Assembly (NCBI GenBank): GCA_963752595.1
Contig: CAVVYZ010000017.1
Location: forward strand, 1-64,000
Source: an uncultured delta proteobacterium
Lineage (GTDB): Bacteria > Desulfobacterota > Desulfomonilia > UBA1062
Length of the DNA: 64,000 bases
Reading direction: 5' to 3'
Below are positions 32,691-60,427 of the stretch, piece after piece. The translations under genes were made by a program, and so were the position numbers. Every line of letters starts with the position of its first letter. Position 1 is the stretch's first letter. Below the pieces are notes generated by a model. It was not told where the DNA came from, searched no databases, and worked only from the letters and a program-made list of their open reading frames with translations.

Positions 32691-32722
32691 AAAAAAGGGG
32701 ATGCTTGTCGAAGCATCCCCTT
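32691..32722 (-). terminator. Terminator downstream of tRNA-Ile2
   Basis: AAGGGGATGCTT-GTCG-AAGCATCCCCTT with an A-run on the left (U-tract on the minus strand). Confidence 0.75.
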
Positions 32723-32806: not shown

Positions 32807-32879
32807 TGGGCCCACCTGGAATCGAACCAGGGACCTACCGGTTATGAGCCGGTGGCTCTACCAATTGAGCTATGGGCCC
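32807..32879 (-). tRNA. tRNA with CAT anticodon, probably tRNA-Ile2 (lysidine)
   Basis: GGGCCCATAGCTCAATTGGTAGAGCCACCGGCTCATAACCGGTAGGTCCCTGGTTCGATTCCAGGTGGGCCCA; fully paired acceptor stem, so not fMet. Confidence 0.9.
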
Positions 32880-32926
32880 TTTTACTTGAAGGTTCATAAT
32901 CCAAACGAAAACATAGTGTCAAGCTC

Positions 32927-34693
32927 TTATTTGCCCCCCAGAGCCTCTAGGATATTCACGATTTTTATCCCCTCGTTGATGGTCTTGATACTTGAGTCGA
33001 TCTTCAGGAGCTCTTCTTGCAGGCGAGCCTTCTCTTTCTCATCGGTTTCTCGGGAGAGCTGCTCATCGACCAGCCCCTTGAGACCTTCCATGTATGCCCG
33101 TTCCCGATCCGGAAGCGAGAGGATCTTCGGCACCTCTGTCTGTGATCCGGACGAGGTTTCCCGCAAGAAATCGATTACATCCGGAGACTCCGACCTCGTC
33201 AACCCATGCTGCATATCCGTGTTCATGAATATGACCTCGTCATAATAGAAGCCGAAAACTTTCTTGATAAGTATTGATCTGTGGTCCAGGAGGTCATTTA
33301 TATAGCCGGATAGATCAGAAAATTTCTTTTCGCTTCTTTCCTCGATCTTAAGTATCTCCGCTTTATCGGTACAGGTGTAGCAATCTTTTATGGATTCATA
33401 GAACAATTCATAATAGCAGTGCAGGGCAAAGAATATGAGAAAATCGGCTACGACATTGCCGTTTGTTGTACAGGAACTTGTGGAAAGCGCTCCTCCCCTC
33501 TTGATGATCTCTTCCGGGGCCTTGAAGAACCAGTCGGTCCCGAAGATGCCGGGGACATTCGTAATAGCTTCATATTTCAGCCCGTTGCTTCGTGCCTTAT
33601 CTACAATCTCCTTGTCCCGATAGATCATGCCGAGGGCCTTGAGATTGGGAATGAGTGCTCCACAGATGAAGCCGTACTCATTATCCTCATAGAAGCTGAA
33701 GGAAAGATAGTTCGGAGAGGTGACATTGAGAAAATCAGGGGGGAAATTGATGAGGATTCCCTCGCCGTCTATTTCCCGGATGGTAGTGGGTTTCTTCTTG
33801 AGGAACTGGGCATATGCATTGAAGGCATCAGTTTGCAGGATACTGTCCATAATCCTCTTGAAAATGCTCTGAAATTTTTTGGAAGCCTTCCTCTGCTCAA
33901 ATTGATTGAACTGGTACAAAGGATCTCTCAGGGCAAGGCCTGTCCTGAATAATGTCCCTGTGGGGCTCGAGTTTCTGGAGCACAGTACACTGATCTCATC
34001 CTGCCGGGATAAAAGCCTGCTCTCCCATCCCTTTGCAGGGGCAGATTCGAGGAATCCCATGGCATACTGTTTTTCATGGATCTTATCCATCCACTTCTTC
34101 ATCCTGTCGGCCTTCTTTGCAGTATCGCCCACGCAGGACAGGAGGACATTTGCCCCGAGATCATAGGCAGTATCAAGGACCGTGTCCATGATGGCTTCGG
34201 CGGAGAGCTCACCGAAACGTACATTCGCATGGCGGATAATGGAAAGCACCTCCTGTTTGTCTTTGGAATAGATTTTTATTGCCGGCAGCCCTTCGGGGGT
34301 ATCCACGATCTCCTGGCGGTCGTAGGGGATTATATGATCCCTCTGGGGTTCTTCTGCAAGCGACTGCTCCACGTATTTGGTCCTTAATTCATGCTTGCCG
34401 TCCGACTTGATCCGGTAAATCGGATGGCCATTCTTGTCATATCCCTCTAGGACCTTCGATTTTTCAGAGCGCAAGACTCCGGCCAGGAGCTGCTGCACGG
34501 TAGGAATGTCAGCGGTAAAAGCACCGCAAACAACATCTATCCAGACATCGTCATCCTTCAACTCTTTGTGCTTGAATCGTGTGAGGATATCTTCGTTATT
34601 TTCCATGGAAGCATAGATTGCCTGGAGCCCCATCCTTCCATTTGCCCCTCTGATGGCGACTCTGATTACAGGAACTTTGTCTCTGATATCCAT
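32927..34693 (-). CDS. Divergent GAPDH-like protein with swapped segment order, function unknown
   Basis: RVAIRGANGRMG, DLGANVLLSCVG, ESAPAK, SRNSSPTGT, YEDNEYGF, STSSCTTN, MQHGLT, ETSSGS..VPKIL; GGAGG RBS. Confidence 0.65.
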   Translation of the reverse strand: MDIRDKVPVIRVAIRGANGRMGLQAIYASMENNEDILTRFKHKELKDDDVWIDVVCGAFTADIPTVQQLLAGVLRSEKSKVLEGYDKNGHPIYRIKSDGKHELRTKYVEQSLAEEPQRDHIIPYDRQEIVDTPEGLPAIKIYSKDKQEVLSIIRHANVRFGELSAEAIMDTVLDTAYDLGANVLLSCVGDTAKKADRMKKWMDKIHEKQYAMGFLESAPAKGWESRLLSRQDEISVLCSRNSSPTGTLFRTGLALRDPLYQFNQFEQRKASKKFQSIFKRIMDSILQTDAFNAYAQFLKKKPTTIREIDGEGILINFPPDFLNVTSPNYLSFSFYEDNEYGFICGALIPNLKALGMIYRDKEIVDKARSNGLKYEAITNVPGIFGTDWFFKAPEEIIKRGGALSTSSCTTNGNVVADFLIFFALHCYYELFYESIKDCYTCTDKAEILKIEERSEKKFSDLSGYINDLLDHRSILIKKVFGFYYDEVIFMNTDMQHGLTRSESPDVIDFLRETSSGSQTEVPKILSLPDRERAYMEGLKGLVDEQLSRETDEKEKARLQEELLKIDSSIKTINEGIKIVNILEALGGK

Positions 34694-34943
34694 ATGGTAA
34701 CCTCCACCTGTTTTATTAATGAATGATGCATTCTGAGAGCCGATAAATCATATACCAGATCGGCCATTTTCAGGCAAGGGGATCGAGGTCCTTCCTTTCC
34801 TCATCTCCTAGAAGAGAATATAGCGGCCAGCCTCTCACTTTTCTATGTACCTCGTTTTGTGAATAAAAGTTCACTGCACAATCTTTAAAACCTATTGTAT
34901 ATCGATGCGCCCCTCGCTTTTCCCGGTGTCGTTTTCCTGATAT

Positions 34944-36089
34944 ATGGAGGAAATGGTAGAAGTGGATATTACGATTATCGGCGCAGGGGTCATCGGCCTT
35001 TCCATTGCTCGAGAACTCGGCTCCTGTGCTGACCACGTGGTGATCATGGAAAAAGAGCCGAGGCCCGGCATGGGAATCAGCTCGAGAAACAGCGAGGTCA
35101 TCCATTCAGGGATATATTATCCAACAGGATCGCTCAAGGCACGGTTTTGCGTAGAGGGTTCCGTGATGCTCTCAGAATACTGTACATCCCACAAAGTCCC
35201 TTATCAGAACCCGGGAAAGGTCATCGTTGCAACCGAACCATCTGAAGAAAAGACCGTTGAAAAACTCTTTCTCAAGGGGACGGATAATTGCGTACAAGGC
35301 TTGAAAATCCTCACCAGATCCGAGCTCAAAAAGATCGAACCGAACGTATCAGGCATATGCGCCCTGCATTCTCACCACACAGGAATTATTGACTCCCACC
35401 GCCTCATCAAGTCATTGGAAGCACAGTGCCTCGACAAGGGGGTTTCCATCTTTTATAATACGGAGATTACCGCCCTTCAGAATTCATCTGCAGGCTTTGT
35501 ATGCACAGCCTGCAGCCTGAACGGAAATCCTTATACATTCTCTTCAAGGGTCGTGATCAATGCTACAGGGCTCTTTTCCGACAAAATAGCGGCTTTGGCC
35601 GGTATCGATATAGATGCTGCAGGATATCGCATCTATCCGGTGAAAGGCGAGTATTTTCGGGTGAGGGGAGGCAAACACAAACTCGTGGGCGGCCTCGTCT
35701 ACCCGGTCCCTGAGAGAAACCTCAAGGGCCTAGGCATCCATGCCACGAAGGACCTTGAGGGATTTTTACGGCTGGGTCCGAACGCTTTTCCCGTCGATGA
35801 CATCACCTATGATGTGGATAGCTCTCATGCAAATATATTCTATGAGAGCGCCAGGGGCATGCTCCCTTTCCTGGATCCTTCCGATCTCGTTCCCGACATG
35901 GCAGGCATCAGGCCGAAAATACAGAAGCCAGGAGGTTCCCAGAAGGATTTCATGATCTGCCATGAGGAAGCACATGGGCTTGCCGGGCTTTTTACCCTTG
36001 CCGGCATCGAATCTCCGGGGCTTACCTCATGCCTCTCCATCGGCAGGTATGTTGCCGCTCTGGTGAAAAAGGCCGGATTGATCTCCTAG
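34944..36089 (+). CDS. FAD-dependent oxidoreductase, L-2-hydroxyglutarate oxidase (LhgO)-like
   Basis: IIGAGVIG, SSRNSEVIHSGIYY..GSLKA, KGEYF, LGIH.T.DL, GIRPK, GIESPGLTS. Confidence 0.85.
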   Translation: MEEMVEVDITIIGAGVIGLSIARELGSCADHVVIMEKEPRPGMGISSRNSEVIHSGIYYPTGSLKARFCVEGSVMLSEYCTSHKVPYQNPGKVIVATEPSEEKTVEKLFLKGTDNCVQGLKILTRSELKKIEPNVSGICALHSHHTGIIDSHRLIKSLEAQCLDKGVSIFYNTEITALQNSSAGFVCTACSLNGNPYTFSSRVVINATGLFSDKIAALAGIDIDAAGYRIYPVKGEYFRVRGGKHKLVGGLVYPVPERNLKGLGIHATKDLEGFLRLGPNAFPVDDITYDVDSSHANIFYESARGMLPFLDPSDLVPDMAGIRPKIQKPGGSQKDFMICHEEAHGLAGLFTLAGIESPGLTSCLSIGRYVAALVKKAGLIS

Positions 36090-55291: not shown

Positions 55292-56068
55292 TTATTTTTT
55301 TGTTGCAAATAATTTATCATAATTCATGGTCGTTTCCCGAGCAATATCTTCAGATGCACATCCCTTGATTTTTGCAATCTGTTCTATCGTATGAATCAGA
55401 TAAGCCGGCTCGTTTCGCTTTCCGCGGAAAGGGACCGGCGCAAGATAAGGCGCATCAGTTTCAACAAGAAGTTTTTCCATCGGGCACATGCGAACTACTT
55501 CTCTTAATGATGATGCATTCTGAAAAGTTACTACCCCGGGAACGGATATATAAAAACCCTTCTCCAGTATTGTTGAAGCCATCTCGGCATCACCGGAATA
55601 GCAATGAAATACCCCTCCGAGCTGCCAGGCATCCTCTTCATTCAAAACTCTCATTGTTTGAACGTGGGCATCGCGATCATGGATTACCAAGGGAAGCGAA
55701 AGGCTTTTCGCCAGAGATATATGAGCACGGAACAGTTCCCTTTGGAGCGGTTCGCTCTCGGGTGTACGATACAAATCAAAACCGGTTTCTCCTACTGCCG
55801 CTACTTTTCCTCGCCCGATGAGACTTTGTAAAGAATGAACATCTTCGGCGGTGTATTTACCGGCATTCTGAGGGTGTATGCCGAGGCTCACCTGTATTCC
55901 TTTATCTAGCGAGGCTAATTCCAGTGCCTTTTCCGAATCAACGGGGTCTGTACCAACCAGGAGCATATTCCTGACGCCCGAAGAAAACGCTCGGTCAATT
56001 ACCTCTTTACGATCTTTATTGAATGCATGAAATTGCAGATGATTATGAGAATCTGAAATACTACTCAT
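55292..56068 (-). CDS. TatD family hydrolase
   Basis: DSHNH, GIHP, VGETGFD, IHDRDA, FHCYSG, ETDAPYLAP. Confidence 0.93.
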   Translation of the reverse strand: MSSISDSHNHLQFHAFNKDRKEVIDRAFSSGVRNMLLVGTDPVDSEKALELASLDKGIQVSLGIHPQNAGKYTAEDVHSLQSLIGRGKVAAVGETGFDLYRTPESEPLQRELFRAHISLAKSLSLPLVIHDRDAHVQTMRVLNEEDAWQLGGVFHCYSGDAEMASTILEKGFYISVPGVVTFQNASSLREVVRMCPMEKLLVETDAPYLAPVPFRGKRNEPAYLIHTIEQIAKIKGCASEDIARETTMNYDKLFATKK

Positions 56069-56069
56069 A

Positions 56070-56822
56070 TTACATAATTTTCCTGAGATACTTGTGGATC
56101 ATGGAATTGCTCGCCAGAATATCCCTGCAATACACATCAAAGGGTTTACCATCGATTCCCGTGATTTTACCTCCTGCCTCAAGCACGATTGCCGCACCTG
56201 CAGCAACATCCCAGGGATATAGACCGATTTCCCAGAAACCGTCAAACGAACCTGCAGCAACATAGCATAAGTCCAAAGCTGCAGAACCAAGCCTGCGAAT
56301 ACCTTGTACCTCTCCGAGGATCCGTGAAAAACGTGAAATGATATCTCCCGCATGTTCTCCTGAATAGGGAAACCCTGTTACAACGAGAGCATCTATCAAC
56401 CGGGATGTTTCAGAAACAAAAATTCTCTTCCCGCTTCTATAAGCCCCCTTCCCACGTTCAGAATAATACAACTCCTCGCTTACCGGATTATAACAAACAC
56501 CTATATAAGGATTTTTATCTTTATAAACAGCTATAGAGACGCAAAATATCGGGATGCTGTGTACATAATTCACCGTACCATCCAAGGGGTCTACGAACCA
56601 GGTGAATCCGGCACCTGTCTCTTTTGTCAATCCTTCTTCAGCAATGACTGAATGGTTCGGAAATTCACGTTCGATTTCTCCAAAGATTATATCTTGCGAA
56701 CCTTTATCAACTCGAGTTACCGGATTGATACGGCTTTTGAATTCTACCTGAAGGTCTGTACCGATATTCTGCTTGAGATAACCGCCAGCCTTTTTTGCGA
56801 GATAAATAACAAAATCCAGCAT
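56070..56822 (-). CDS. suhB: Inositol monophosphatase family protein
   Basis: AEE, WFVDPLDGTVNY, RRLGSAALDL.YVA.G.FDG, WDVAAG; start could be 56852. Confidence 0.88.
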   Translation of the reverse strand: MLDFVIYLAKKAGGYLKQNIGTDLQVEFKSRINPVTRVDKGSQDIIFGEIEREFPNHSVIAEEGLTKETGAGFTWFVDPLDGTVNYVHSIPIFCVSIAVYKDKNPYIGVCYNPVSEELYYSERGKGAYRSGKRIFVSETSRLIDALVVTGFPYSGEHAGDIISRFSRILGEVQGIRRLGSAALDLCYVAAGSFDGFWEIGLYPWDVAAGAAIVLEAGGKITGIDGKPFDVYCRDILASNSMIHKYLRKIM

Positions 56823-56866
56823 AGCAACTCTTGCCAACCTCCTGACTTTCATGTACCATAATAAAT

Positions 56867-57382
56867 ATGGATTGCGTTTACAAGATAAAAAAGAAGCTTA
56901 AACTTCCCATGACTCTCGCAACAGTCATATCCATACCGGTCTTTGCAGATGTCATCATGCAAGGCTACAAAACCTCTCTTCTGGTTATGGCTGCTTCTCT
57001 TATGATACTTTTCTATCTCCTCACTATCAATAACTTATTACGAAAAGTGTGGATAACGGACAAAGAGATCTCGATCCGCGGCATTACAGGCTTGCGGCGT
57101 CTTCCCTTTGAGGATATTTCCTTCATCGACGGCATAACCATGGGCACGAGGCAATTCGTCTCCCTGTCGAGCAAAAAACGAAACTACCTTATCCCCAACA
57201 GTTTCGAGAATTTTTCTGATATCGTTTCCACCCTTGAACAGGTAGCAAATGAAGGTACCCTTGGAGAAGGATTAAAATCCATGAAAGAGAATATCGTTGT
57301 CCGTAAGAGTGATATAACCGGTGCATGGATTACCGTCATTCTGTTGCTCATCATCATCCTCGTCAGATTTTTTCCCCGATGA
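56867..57382 (+). CDS. Hypothetical membrane protein (bacterial PH-domain-like)
   Basis: Two N-terminal TM helices, a beta-rich middle and a C-terminal TM helix. Confidence 0.65.
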   Translation: MDCVYKIKKKLKLPMTLATVISIPVFADVIMQGYKTSLLVMAASLMILFYLLTINNLLRKVWITDKEISIRGITGLRRLPFEDISFIDGITMGTRQFVSLSSKKRNYLIPNSFENFSDIVSTLEQVANEGTLGEGLKSMKENIVVRKSDITGAWITVILLLIIILVRFFPR

Positions 57383-57456
57383 ATCCATTCAATTTATCAA
57401 TTCTCAATCAAACAAATTACAAAAAATATATTGTTTATTCGAGATCTTATAAATAG

Positions 57457-57472
57457 TGTTTCACGTGAAACT
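57457..57472. other. parS: parS centromere-like site
   Basis: TGTTTCACGTGAAACT, 15/16 match to TGTTTCACGTGAAACA, 38 nt upstream of parA. Confidence 0.9.
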
Positions 57473-57510
57473 TTTCTATTCAAAATGATTTTTTTTTATG
57501 GTAGAGCAAC

Positions 57511-58293
57511 ATGGTGAGTCCTAAGATTATAAGCATCTCCAATCAGAAGGGCGGCGTGGGTAAGACTACGACTGCAATAAATCTCGCTTCGTCTTTTGCG
57601 TTGCTGGGTAAGCGCACATTGCTTGTTGATCTGGATCCCCAGGCTAATGCGACAACCGGTGTCGGCATGAATCCTGAAACAGTAGCTTCCCATATCTATC
57701 ATGTCATGATCGGGGAAAAAGATGTTAACACAGTAATCAGGCAGACAAAGCTGAAAGATTTCTTCATAATCCCGAGTCATACTGATCTTGTCGGTGTAGA
57801 GTTTGAGCTGATGAATGAACCCATGAGGGAACGTACCATTTCCCGTTGCTTTTCTCAAATCACTCATCCCTTCGATTATATTATCATCGACTGTCCTCCC
57901 TCTTTGGGGCTCATTACTTTAAATGCACTCACGGCTTCCCATTCCATTCTCATCCCCGTTCAGTGTGAGTATTATGCACTTGAAGGTCTCAAGAGCCTGC
58001 TTAATACCTACAAGCTGGTGAAGAAGAGGCTGAATCCGAGCCTTGCCATTGAGGGTTTTCTTCTCACCATGTATGATTCTCGCACCCGTCTGAGTAATGA
58101 TATTGCAGATAATATGAAGGATCATTTCAGTTCTCAGGTTTTTAAAACTATTATTCCGAGGAATATTCGTTTATGCGAGGCTCCAAGTTTCGGCCTTCCA
58201 ATCTGCCTGTATGATATTTCATCAAAGGGTGCCCAGCATTATCTCATGCTTGCAAAAGAAATTCTTGCGCTGGAGGCAGGGTATGAAAACTAA
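57511..58293 (+). CDS. parA: Chromosome partitioning ATPase ParA/Soj
   Basis: NQKGGVGKTTT, DLDPQAN, IDCPPSLG, QCEYYALEG, IPRN.RL.EAPSFG. Confidence 0.96.
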   Translation: MVSPKIISISNQKGGVGKTTTAINLASSFALLGKRTLLVDLDPQANATTGVGMNPETVASHIYHVMIGEKDVNTVIRQTKLKDFFIIPSHTDLVGVEFELMNEPMRERTISRCFSQITHPFDYIIIDCPPSLGLITLNALTASHSILIPVQCEYYALEGLKSLLNTYKLVKKRLNPSLAIEGFLLTMYDSRTRLSNDIADNMKDHFSSQVFKTIIPRNIRLCEAPSFGLPICLYDISSKGAQHYLMLAKEILALEAGYEN

Positions 58294-59131
58294 AACGCGC
58301 TTGGGGAGAGGCATCGATGCGATCTTTACCGACAGTCTCCAGGATGATTCTTCACAAGTTATAGAAATACCGTTGGATGAAATTTATCCCAATCCTACTC
58401 AACCGAGAAAGACCTTCGATGAAAATTCCATTGCCGAACTTGCAGAATCTATCAAATCTCATGGTCTTATCTCTCCGATTCTCGTAAGGAGAATGAATTC
58501 GAGATATGAGATCATTGCAGGCGAGAGGAGATATCAGGCATGTAAATTAGCCGGCATCCGGAATATACCTTCGATTGTAAAGGATATCTCGGATGCGGAT
58601 GCCTTTAAGATCTCTCTGGTTGAAAATCTTCAGCGAGAAGATTTGAACCCAATGGAAGAATCAGAGGCTTTTTATACGCTAAAAGAACAATTCAATTTGA
58701 CACACCAGGATATTGCTGATGCGGTTCAGAAAGACAGGTCTACCATTACGAACTCATTGCGTCTCGTAAATCTCCCTGAAGAGGTGAAAAAATCTCTCAG
58801 GGAAGGAGTTATTTCCACAGGTCATGCCCGTGCCATTTTAATGATTGATAATTATCCCTCTCAGATAGTTCTTCTTAATAAAATCATTTCTCACACATTG
58901 AGTGTCAGAGAAGCAGAGAAGGCTGCATCTGAGAAAGGAAAGAAGAAAAAATGCCTACGGAAGCAAGACCCGTATTTGGAAGAAATTTCCTCTGTTCTTG
59001 CTGAGAAGCTCGGCGTAAAAGTTGTTTGTTTGTGGGGGAAAAGTAAGGGTAAGATCGTAATTGATGTGAGTACGCGAGATGATTTAAAAAGAATTGTACA
59101 GGAACTTTGTCAACATGAAGTACCTATCTGA
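58283..59131 (+). CDS. parB: Chromosome partitioning protein ParB/Spo0J
   Basis: LGRGIDA, NP.QPRK.F, IIAGERR, ENLQREDLNP, HTH. Confidence 0.96.
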   Translation: MKTKTRLGRGIDAIFTDSLQDDSSQVIEIPLDEIYPNPTQPRKTFDENSIAELAESIKSHGLISPILVRRMNSRYEIIAGERRYQACKLAGIRNIPSIVKDISDADAFKISLVENLQREDLNPMEESEAFYTLKEQFNLTHQDIADAVQKDRSTITNSLRLVNLPEEVKKSLREGVISTGHARAILMIDNYPSQIVLLNKIISHTLSVREAEKAASEKGKKKKCLRKQDPYLEEISSVLAEKLGVKVVCLWGKSKGKIVIDVSTRDDLKRIVQELCQHEVPI

Positions 59132-59302
59132 CCATAGAAGTTTTGAACATGTTGACACGGAATAGAATCAGATTCGGTATGGTGGTAAATTATAAACGTT
59201 GTTTTGAACCGGTCAAAAGGGTTAAAAACAAAGGGTTGATTTGGTTATGAACAGGTGAAAAGGTTTTATTAGTTATAACTATATCTAGGGAGAATAAAAA
59301 AA

Positions 59303-60427
59303 ATGAGATGTAACATTTCTAAAGTATCTTTGCAGAACATGCTTTCAAAAGTTCAAGGTTTCACGGAAAAAAAATCCACCCTCCCTATTTTGAGCCATGT
59401 CCTGCTTGAGGCTAAAGGTGATTCTTTGCAGGTTAAAGCGACTGATCTCCATACCTCAATTCAAGTGAAAGCTCCCTGCGAAGTCAATCAACCCGGTGCA
59501 TGTGCAATTAATGGAAAGAGTTTTTATGATGTGGTTCGAGAATTACCCGATCAAATGCTCCAGATACTTATAGAGGATAATTCACGGGCTCAAATCAATG
59601 CCGTAAACAGTAAGATAAAAATGAATGTAATGGATGCTGAAGAATATCCTATGGTCGAATTTTCGGATCTGGAGAAAGGATACCCGATCGATCTTGCCGT
59701 GATGAAACCAATGATAGAGAGGACGATTTTTTCCATTCCTTCTTCAGCTGAGAGCGACAGCAAGTATACATTAGGAGGAGCTCTTCTTACGTCTGGTATA
59801 ACGGACAGCAAAGAAGGATATATAGAGATGGTTTCGACCGATACCAGAAGGCTCTCTGTTGTACGATATCTCATGGATAGGCAGATCGACATGGGAAGCG
59901 GTATCATTGTCCCGCGGAAAGGACTTCAGGAACTTAAACGGCTTATGGATAGCAAGGAAGGTGATTCCAGTATTCTCCTTACGAGGGATTCGATCTTTTT
60001 TGTATCTCCTGATACGATAGCTACGGTTCGGTTGATTGATGGTAAATTTCCGGATTATCAAAGTGTAGTTGCTTTGGAAAGCTTTCCGATCTATACCCGG
60101 GTAAATGCTCAGGAGCTTTTTACTGTATTGAAAGTTTGTGTTGCAATGGTTTCTGATATCTCCAATTGTGTGAGATTTTCATTTCAGAAAAACCAGATAG
60201 TGGTTTTTGCAAACAATCCTGATCAGGGTGAGGTTGAGACGCCTATCCCTGCAGAGCATTTTGGCCAGGAATTGGAGATTAATTTTAATCCCCGGTATTT
60301 TATGGATTGCTTATCGTTTGTTGAAGGTGAAATTGAAATAAGGCTGAAAGGTCCCCAGGGTCCTTGCATGATAACGGATTTTAAAAACACAGAAAGTAAA
60401 TGGGTAATTATGCCCATGCGCTTCTAG
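59303..60427 (+). CDS. dnaN: DNA polymerase III beta sliding clamp
   Basis: TLPILS, ATDL, STD.RRL, IVPRKG, RLIDGKFPDY, FNPRY, VIMPMR. Confidence 0.95.
   Translation: MRCNISKVSLQNMLSKVQGFTEKKSTLPILSHVLLEAKGDSLQVKATDLHTSIQVKAPCEVNQPGACAINGKSFYDVVRELPDQMLQILIEDNSRAQINAVNSKIKMNVMDAEEYPMVEFSDLEKGYPIDLAVMKPMIERTIFSIPSSAESDSKYTLGGALLTSGITDSKEGYIEMVSTDTRRLSVVRYLMDRQIDMGSGIIVPRKGLQELKRLMDSKEGDSSILLTRDSIFFVSPDTIATVRLIDGKFPDYQSVVALESFPIYTRVNAQELFTVLKVCVAMVSDISNCVRFSFQKNQIVVFANNPDQGEVETPIPAEHFGQELEINFNPRYFMDCLSFVEGEIEIRLKGPQGPCMITDFKNTESKWVIMPMRF

Follow-up and report, generated by a model that had tools for sequence, protein, structure and literature searches.

Few enzymes are as conserved, or as intensively studied, as GAPDH. 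In the cited descriptions of the class I enzyme, Cys149 and His176 form the catalytic dyad, the Ps site comprises Thr179, Arg231 and Arg195, and the Pi site comprises Ser148 and Thr208-Ala210, with Asp32 serving NAD and Arg77 and Ser33 serving the 2'-phosphate of NADP (PMC12041015, PMC9287727). Natural non-circular permutation is described for DNA methyltransferases, in which it lies within a domain and the critical groups are kept; such within-domain permutations are described as rare, and as rarer than circular ones (PMC10085705). A permuted GAPDH was not found in searches of the open-access literature, and the string "permut" does not occur in the available text of a 2025 review of the superfamily (PMC12041015).

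The window analyzed here, the whole stretch of 64,000 nucleotides from an uncultured delta proteobacterium, carries on its minus strand an open reading frame of 588 aa (32927-34693) with an ATG start and a ribosome-binding-like GGAGG ahead of it. Its product, P0001, descends from class I GAPDH but has its segments in the order A-C-B rather than A-B-C, and it is about 250 residues longer than class I GAPDH. The features of the locus are listed below, with GAPDH residue equivalents given as putative assignments.

32927..34693, minus strand: gene for the A-C-B permuted GAPDH-like protein P0001 (588 aa), based on the open reading frame, its family and its conservation

34013..34693, minus strand: segment A, residues 1-227, the Rossmann NAD(P)-binding part, with GANGRMG, SCVG and SAP

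33614..34012, minus strand: segment C, residues 228-360, the latter half of the catalytic sheet plus the helix that is C-terminal in canonical GAPDH, with R240 (putative Arg231), E336 (in place of Tyr311) and N338 (putative Asn313)

33572..33613, minus strand: new C-to-B linker, residues 361-374, predicted to form a short helix

33113..33571, minus strand: segment B, residues 375-527, with SSCTTN, C408, H496, T499, the shortened S-loop and S515-G516

33470-33472, minus strand: codon of C408

33206-33208, minus strand: codon of H496, at which a predicted strand ends

33236..33442, minus strand: helical insertion within B, residues 418-486

32930..33112, minus strand: predicted C-terminal helical hairpin, residues 528-588, family-specific and not present in the distant relatives P0096 and P0102

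32807..32879, minus strand: tRNA with CAT anticodon, directly downstream of the permuted gene

34944..36089, plus strand: divergent FAD-dependent oxidoreductase that matches L-2-hydroxyglutarate oxidase best, although below cut-off

Segment A also holds a conserved beta-rich insert (residues 71-148), the conservation of which (0.86) is at the same level as that of the core; the C-to-B linker is poorly conserved (0.58). The Cys-to-His spacing is 88 residues in P0001, 27 in canonical GAPDH and 56-57 in the distant members.

An earlier note on this DNA had read GAPDH motifs in the order A-C-B, and all of those it quoted occur verbatim, at the residues given, and in that order in the 588-aa frame. 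Segment A contains RGANGRMG (15-22), DLGANVLLSCVG (178-189) and ESAPAK (216-221, with S217), segment C contains SVLCSRNSSPTGTL (235-248) and YEDNEYGF (335-342, with D337), and segment B contains TNVPGI (378-383), STSSCTTN (404-411, with C408), DMQHGLT (493-499, with H496) and RETSSGS..VPKIL (511-525). TNVPGI held up in P0001 itself, but its glycine is not retained in distant members; likewise, the tail described as a coiled coil is present, but it is a predicted helical hairpin confined to the protein's own family. Homologues with the same order, for which the note had proposed a search, proved to be numerous: 101 of 128 collected proteins have all seven motif patterns, and every one of these 101 has the A-C-B order. 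The remaining 27 lack at least one motif and are mostly fragments or chimeras, along with two full-length proteins and one repetitive false match. Canonical order was seen in none of the 110 proteins that have both EDNExG and SCT[TS]N, and the spacing from SAP to the putative Arg231 is 23-29 residues, as against 113 in a canonical gap. The A-C-B motif order exceeds chance. Since A-C-B is not a rotation of A-B-C, the permutation is non-circular for the whole chain; equivalently, B and C have been exchanged behind a fixed A. Misassembly, against which the note had argued from the intact frame, can be dismissed: dozens of genomes assembled independently contain full-length matches, and a contig from another sequencing run is colinear over 32853-34810 with no joint.

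Kinship with GAPDH is not apparent from the single sequence. The sole Pfam match of P0001 alone was a weak one to DapB_N (16.8 bits); NCBIfam gave P0001 no match at all, no GAPDH match was obtained in Pfam, NCBIfam or PDB with either the single sequence or a narrow profile, a single-sequence search of PDB sequences gave nothing significant, and the ESM Atlas yielded no usable P0001 match. The distant P0096 scored 18.8 bits against the class I GAPDH model, below the cut-off of 367.2, and its language-model neighbours were class II GAPDH clusters at 0.86-0.87, which is below 0.9 and a lead only. A GAPDH match surfaced only once distant members joined the profile, whereupon the top PDB sequence match was GAPDH in three pieces out of order, with query residues 9-65 matching 15-73 of the GAPDH chain, 251-344 matching 238-331, and 402-442 matching 156-195.

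The reference for the reordering comparison was a profile built from 32 canonical GAPDHs of related genomes. The prediction that an A-B-C rearrangement would score far better was borne out by hhalign in local mode, in which the native order gave 47.3% over 58 columns and the A-B-C order gave 96.0% (E 4e-9, 231 columns), the best among six orders; the C-A-B order, which also contains an A-to-B join, gave 93.7%. The same prediction failed with HMMER, the scores of which were flat across segment orders with no rise on reordering. A grid of 90 junction pairs had its maximum at residue 228 and 370-400, and in a shuffle control the real B scored 74.3, compared to 49.6 +/- 5.5 (maximum 62.4) for 40 column-shuffled versions of B and 43.1 for the native order. 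Segment 373-420 aligns to GAPDH 148-157; residues 485-530 alone and 228-260 alone gave no profile match to GAPDH.

The AlphaFold model of P0001 has a pLDDT of 87.5 and a pTM of 0.88, with residues 500-520 below a pLDDT of 50, and the P0096 model has a pLDDT of 60.7. Among the top Foldseek matches listed, those of both models were GAPDH or E4PDH throughout. When compared to 48,161 PDB representatives, the P0001 model ranked class I GAPDH first (Z 14.1 with an rmsd of 3.0 over 239 aligned residues, then 13.1), with the next family at Z 9.8, and the P0096 model gave Z 14.5 and 13.9, with the next entry at 9.3; structural identity to class I GAPDH is 11-20%. In an order-respecting alignment, residues 8-360 of P0001 alone cover GAPDH chain 1-333 with approximately 240 pairs, and P0096 behaves in the same way (residues 1-325, Z 14.9). 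The roughly 90 GAPDH residues left unaligned equal the length of B, so the shortfall matches B. The structural ranking and the out-of-order profile pieces thus uphold the GAPDH fold that had been proposed: the protein is predicted to combine a Rossmann part with the GAPDH catalytic alpha/beta domain, to which A and C are assigned from the modelled structure and B from the reordered profile. We regard the segment-swapped A-C-B topology itself as nearly certain.

Residues were mapped onto GAPDH numbers by motif and predicted secondary structure, using canonical motif numbering. C408, H496, T499, S515 and G516, as well as R240, D337, N338, E339 and G341, are identical in all 86 family proteins, in P0096 and in all 12 sequences of the P0102 cluster. 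Also conserved across these three subfamilies are G16, G19, R20, G22, G189, S217, P219, T247 and E336, together with T409-T410-N411, M494, E502, R511, S517 and E520-V521-P522; S407 is kept in 85 of the 86 family proteins. C408 lies in S-C-T-T-N and a helix starts at 408 in the AlphaFold model. By this mapping, C408 would be the equivalent of Cys149, T499 of Thr179, S515-G516 of Thr208-Gly209, R240 of Arg231, and N338 of Asn313. H496 is the least secure of these assignments. In the global reordered alignment, DMQH fell on the DMPH of the S-loop and not on the catalytic His, so that the putative equivalence of H496 and His176 is an assignment by strand position and invariance; in both models a strand ends at H496, followed by x-x-Thr as in GAPDH.

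The S-loop is as short as had been suspected. His-to-Gly209 spacing is 20 in all three subfamilies versus 32, a difference of 12 residues that leaves no evident place for Arg195 of the Ps site. Tyr311, Thr174 and Cys153 are replaced by an invariant Glu, Met and Gly/Ala, respectively, which points to a remodelled pocket, and E336, E502, R511 and E520 are new invariant charged residues. In the cited account of human GAPDH, Tyr314 and Thr177 govern peroxide sensitivity and are dispensable for basal activity (PMC10132988), and their replacement is thus compatible with catalysis.

At the end of Rossmann strand 2, where the register is uncertain, the protein's own family has G57 (86/86), A/V58 and F59 and no Asp or Glu. 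Together with the invariance of T60 and R159 in that family, this makes a preference for NADP(H) likely there, a preference that would be complementary to the host's canonical Gap, in which Asp32 is present; the canonical gap sequences of the family that were examined keep Asp32. By eye, strand 2 of P0096 still seems to end in an Asp. In GAPDH, certain strand positions face the partner subunit. Their equivalents here are polar by eye (N491, D493 and Q495), which, taken together with the shortened S-loop, suggests that oligomerization may differ.

The homologue search returned 96 proteins, 95 of which are 61-100% identical to P0001, and homologues occur among MAGs labelled Desulfomonilia, Deltaproteobacteria and Syntrophaceae. 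Of 36 genomes from the host's own family, whole-genome searches located the gene in 34 (in a few as fragments), and of 24 sister-family genomes in none. In a sample of 400 genomes of the phylum, all six own-family genomes were positive; matches in two of the other 394 were 30-residue N-terminal ones and were discounted as generic to Rossmann proteins. Searching 1.84 billion representatives with a profile yielded 17 matches. Two of these are distant proteins of full length, P0096 (459 aa) and P0102 (454 aa, from a cluster of 12 near-identical sequences), and another is the fragment P0107. These distant subfamilies are approximately 25-31% identical to the own family and to each other, share the A-C-B order, and terminate just after B, the stop of P0096 being a real TAA. 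Weak GAPDH models are the sole NCBIfam matches of the two proteins. The P0096 host genome also has a canonical gap, and among 61 genomes around it a real match was found in the host alone, with one further weak match containing an internal stop. P0102 as a query gave no matches in the metagenome scan, and no relatives were found in viral contigs. In a tree of 21 members, in which canonical GAPDH was not included, the distant branches are 5-10 long and uninformative on origin. P0096 lies after a purine-nucleoside-phosphorylase-like gene, near MutT and a cofactor-independent phosphoglycerate mutase (L074:376-9377), and its host's relatives have small genomes of 0.8-2.5 Mb.

The permuted protein is under strong selection. 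Its dN/dS is 0.057 relative to the nearest unsaturated relative, the sole usable pair of 12 as the ratio was saturated or undefined in the other 11, and in nearly all loci its conservation exceeds that of the Nif3, PyrC and FAD oxidoreductase encoded nearby. One genome contains two gene copies with matching neighbourhoods (G031:C50 and C7), possibly from mixed strains. In three assemblies (G029:C5, G035:C8 and L118) the copies are broken in frame or contain stops, and in G027 (L056) the match is limited to residues 2-48 of the permuted protein, which suggests recent loss.

The neighbourhood is one of housekeeping synteny. The divergent FAD oxidoreductase adjoins the gene on one side in 36 of 46 loci and the tRNA-CAT on the other in 38; beyond the tRNA come Nif3 in 38 and a zinc-ribbon protein in 36, with pyrBC upstream, many of the loci being short. 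The tRNA-CAT is a conserved neighbour that is not thought to be functionally linked to the gene, and the neighbours give no pathway in most genomes. The LhgO-like FAD oxidoreductase (34944-36089) stays beside the gene at L075 and L080, where other tested neighbours were not found, and a functional link between the two is possible. In one genus (L054:8755-15319, L055 and L056), a GAF-domain protein, a canonical gap, a CarB-like gene and the permuted gene follow one another in that order, and the position of the permuted gene two genes downstream of a canonical gap is a weak hint of origin or function. Promoter and terminator counts are at chance level. A 12-bp hairpin with a T-run follows the tRNA-CAT (32695-32722, minus strand) and resembles a terminator, and the gene and tRNA may share a transcript. 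GC skew turns from negative to positive near 58 kb (56000-60000), where GC is lowest, as at a replication origin.

As the note had anticipated, a canonical gap coexists with the permuted gene: a PF02800 gene is present in 34 of 36 own-family genomes, and hosts carry 1-3 ordinary GAPDH-family genes. The genome under study has a class II archaeal-type GAPDH above cut-off (contig C9). Its own canonical class I gap (G000:C12:1566-2575, L001) is spread over three frames by two frameshifts, owing to either assembly error or decay. In near-complete own-family genomes, members of the Asd/ArgC family and PGK were each found in 5/5. PdxJ was found in 0/4 and PdxA in 0/5 of the own-family genomes searched, making an Epd role in vitamin B6 synthesis unlikely; PdxS was found in 3/5. 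Host gene content therefore does not support gap-filling roles as Asd/ArgC, as PGK, or in vitamin B6 synthesis via Epd.

Catalysis of some kind is very probable. We give an even chance to the protein being an active Cys-thioester dehydrogenase, probably NADP-leaning, for G3P or a similar phosphorylated aldehyde. B would dock in the usual GAPDH slot, bringing C408 beside H496, with N338 and F/Y342 holding the nicotinamide. Attack of C408 on the aldehyde would lead to a thioester, with phosphates held by T499 and R240 (Ps site) and by S407, T409, S515 and G516 (Pi site); NAD(P)+ would accept the hydride, after which the acyl-phosphate would be freed from the thioester by phosphate, the sequence being reversible. 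The simplest route to the A-C-B order would be a duplication of B behind C followed by loss of the first copy, although no A-B-C-B intermediate was found. Against a role in G3P oxidation, the hosts already have a class I gap (34/36) and the genome under study a class II enzyme too, so that a further G3P enzyme would be less needed. The same Cys-thioester chemistry might act on something other than G3P, such as a larger phosphorylated aldehyde, an acyl-phosphate or a carrier-bound acyl, in which case the helical insert, the beta insert and the tail could form a lid or docking surface. The coexistence of 1-3 ordinary GAPDH-family genes would fit such a substrate, as would the new invariant charges (E336, E502, R511 and E520), the core-level conservation of insert 71-148, the short S-loop and the alteration of position 311, a position that is described as changed in E4PDH for a larger substrate (PMC12041015). 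However, the putative equivalents of Thr179 and Arg231 are retained, whereas the same source gives E4PDH a Met179 (PMC12041015), and the hosts show no obvious pathway hole (Asd/ArgC 5/5, PGK 5/5), with an Epd role being unlikely. We consider a non-G3P substrate rather unlikely.

A non-phosphorylating dehydrogenase is a quite improbable alternative, in which E336 would activate water or back H496 in a Cys-His-Glu arrangement and the thioester would be hydrolysed, making the enzyme an irreversible source of NAD(P)H. The invariance of E336 in all three subfamilies and the loss of the S-loop part of the Ps site are consistent with hydrolysis, and in the unrelated AlDH fold a Glu by the Cys is described as positioning the hydrolytic water (PMC12041015), but that analogy spans different folds and the Pi-site residues are all retained here. 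Redundancy with gap and the large insertions could also indicate a protein that, without being a catalyst, senses NAD(P) or redox state or acts as a scaffold, for which a degenerate trypanosome GAPDH-like protein offers a precedent (PMC4106842). That protein is predicted to be inactive in the cited account (PMC4106842), whereas here the Cys, the His and both sets of phosphate-site residues are invariant at 25-31% identity, and a non-catalytic role appears very unlikely. The chance of an artefact, whether a misassembly or an unrelated Rossmann protein with a fortuitous series of motifs, is practically negligible: P0001 as a single sequence indeed lacks a significant library match save the weak DapB_N, but the same order recurs in independent genomes and metagenomes, a second contig is colinear, and the fold and reorder tests agree. 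A bolder reading, which we entertain with more doubt than confidence, is that of a third GAPDH architecture: an ancient, active, non-circularly permuted enzyme with a rebuilt Cys-His-Glu site and no S-loop. Such an enzyme would have left the classical tetramer, would catalyse a novel reaction, either NADP(H)-linked or non-phosphorylating, and would have become fixed in a single family of uncultured anaerobes as one of its core genes.

A natural, strongly selected swap that places the Cys/His segment at the C-terminus indicates that the GAPDH fold tolerates re-wiring. Through it, the origin of such swaps can be tested directly, as can the requirement for the S-loop and the tetramer. It points as well to a gap in annotation, in that a core gene of an uncultured Desulfomonilia-class family is missed by Pfam, NCBIfam and PDB sequence searches. 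The permuted enzyme may carry an unrecognized step in the carbon or NADPH metabolism of its own family.

Natural non-circular permutations such as those of the DNA methyltransferases and, reportedly, the HK97-like fold of phage BPP-1 concern folds unrelated to GAPDH. Within the superfamily, class II archaeal-type GAPDH and Asd/ArgC/LysY share with the permuted protein a Cys at the start of the catalytic helix, but they have lower structural Z scores (8-9) and are carried separately by the hosts, and the SAP, HxxT and DNExG of the permuted protein are of class I and not class II type. Epd/GapB (TIGR01532) ranks level with GAPDH by fold (Z 14.3) and is likewise changed at position 311, as described in the cited review (PMC12041015); unlike the permuted family, in which T499 and E336 are invariant, it has the canonical order, Met179 and Cys311. 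The closest described system is class I GAPDH (TIGR01534; Gp_dh_N PF00044 and Gp_dh_C PF02800), with which the permuted protein shares the fold (Z ~14, rmsd ~3, ~240 residues) and the motifs GxxGRxG, S-C/T-x-G, SAP, SCTTN, HxxT, the Arg231 strand and DNExG. It differs in its A-C-B order, in an S-loop 12 residues shorter, in the lack of Asp32 in its own family, and in scores far below the family cut-offs, P0001 giving no match to TIGR01534 or PF02800. On order, score, S-loop and Asp32, the protein falls outside class I GAPDH.
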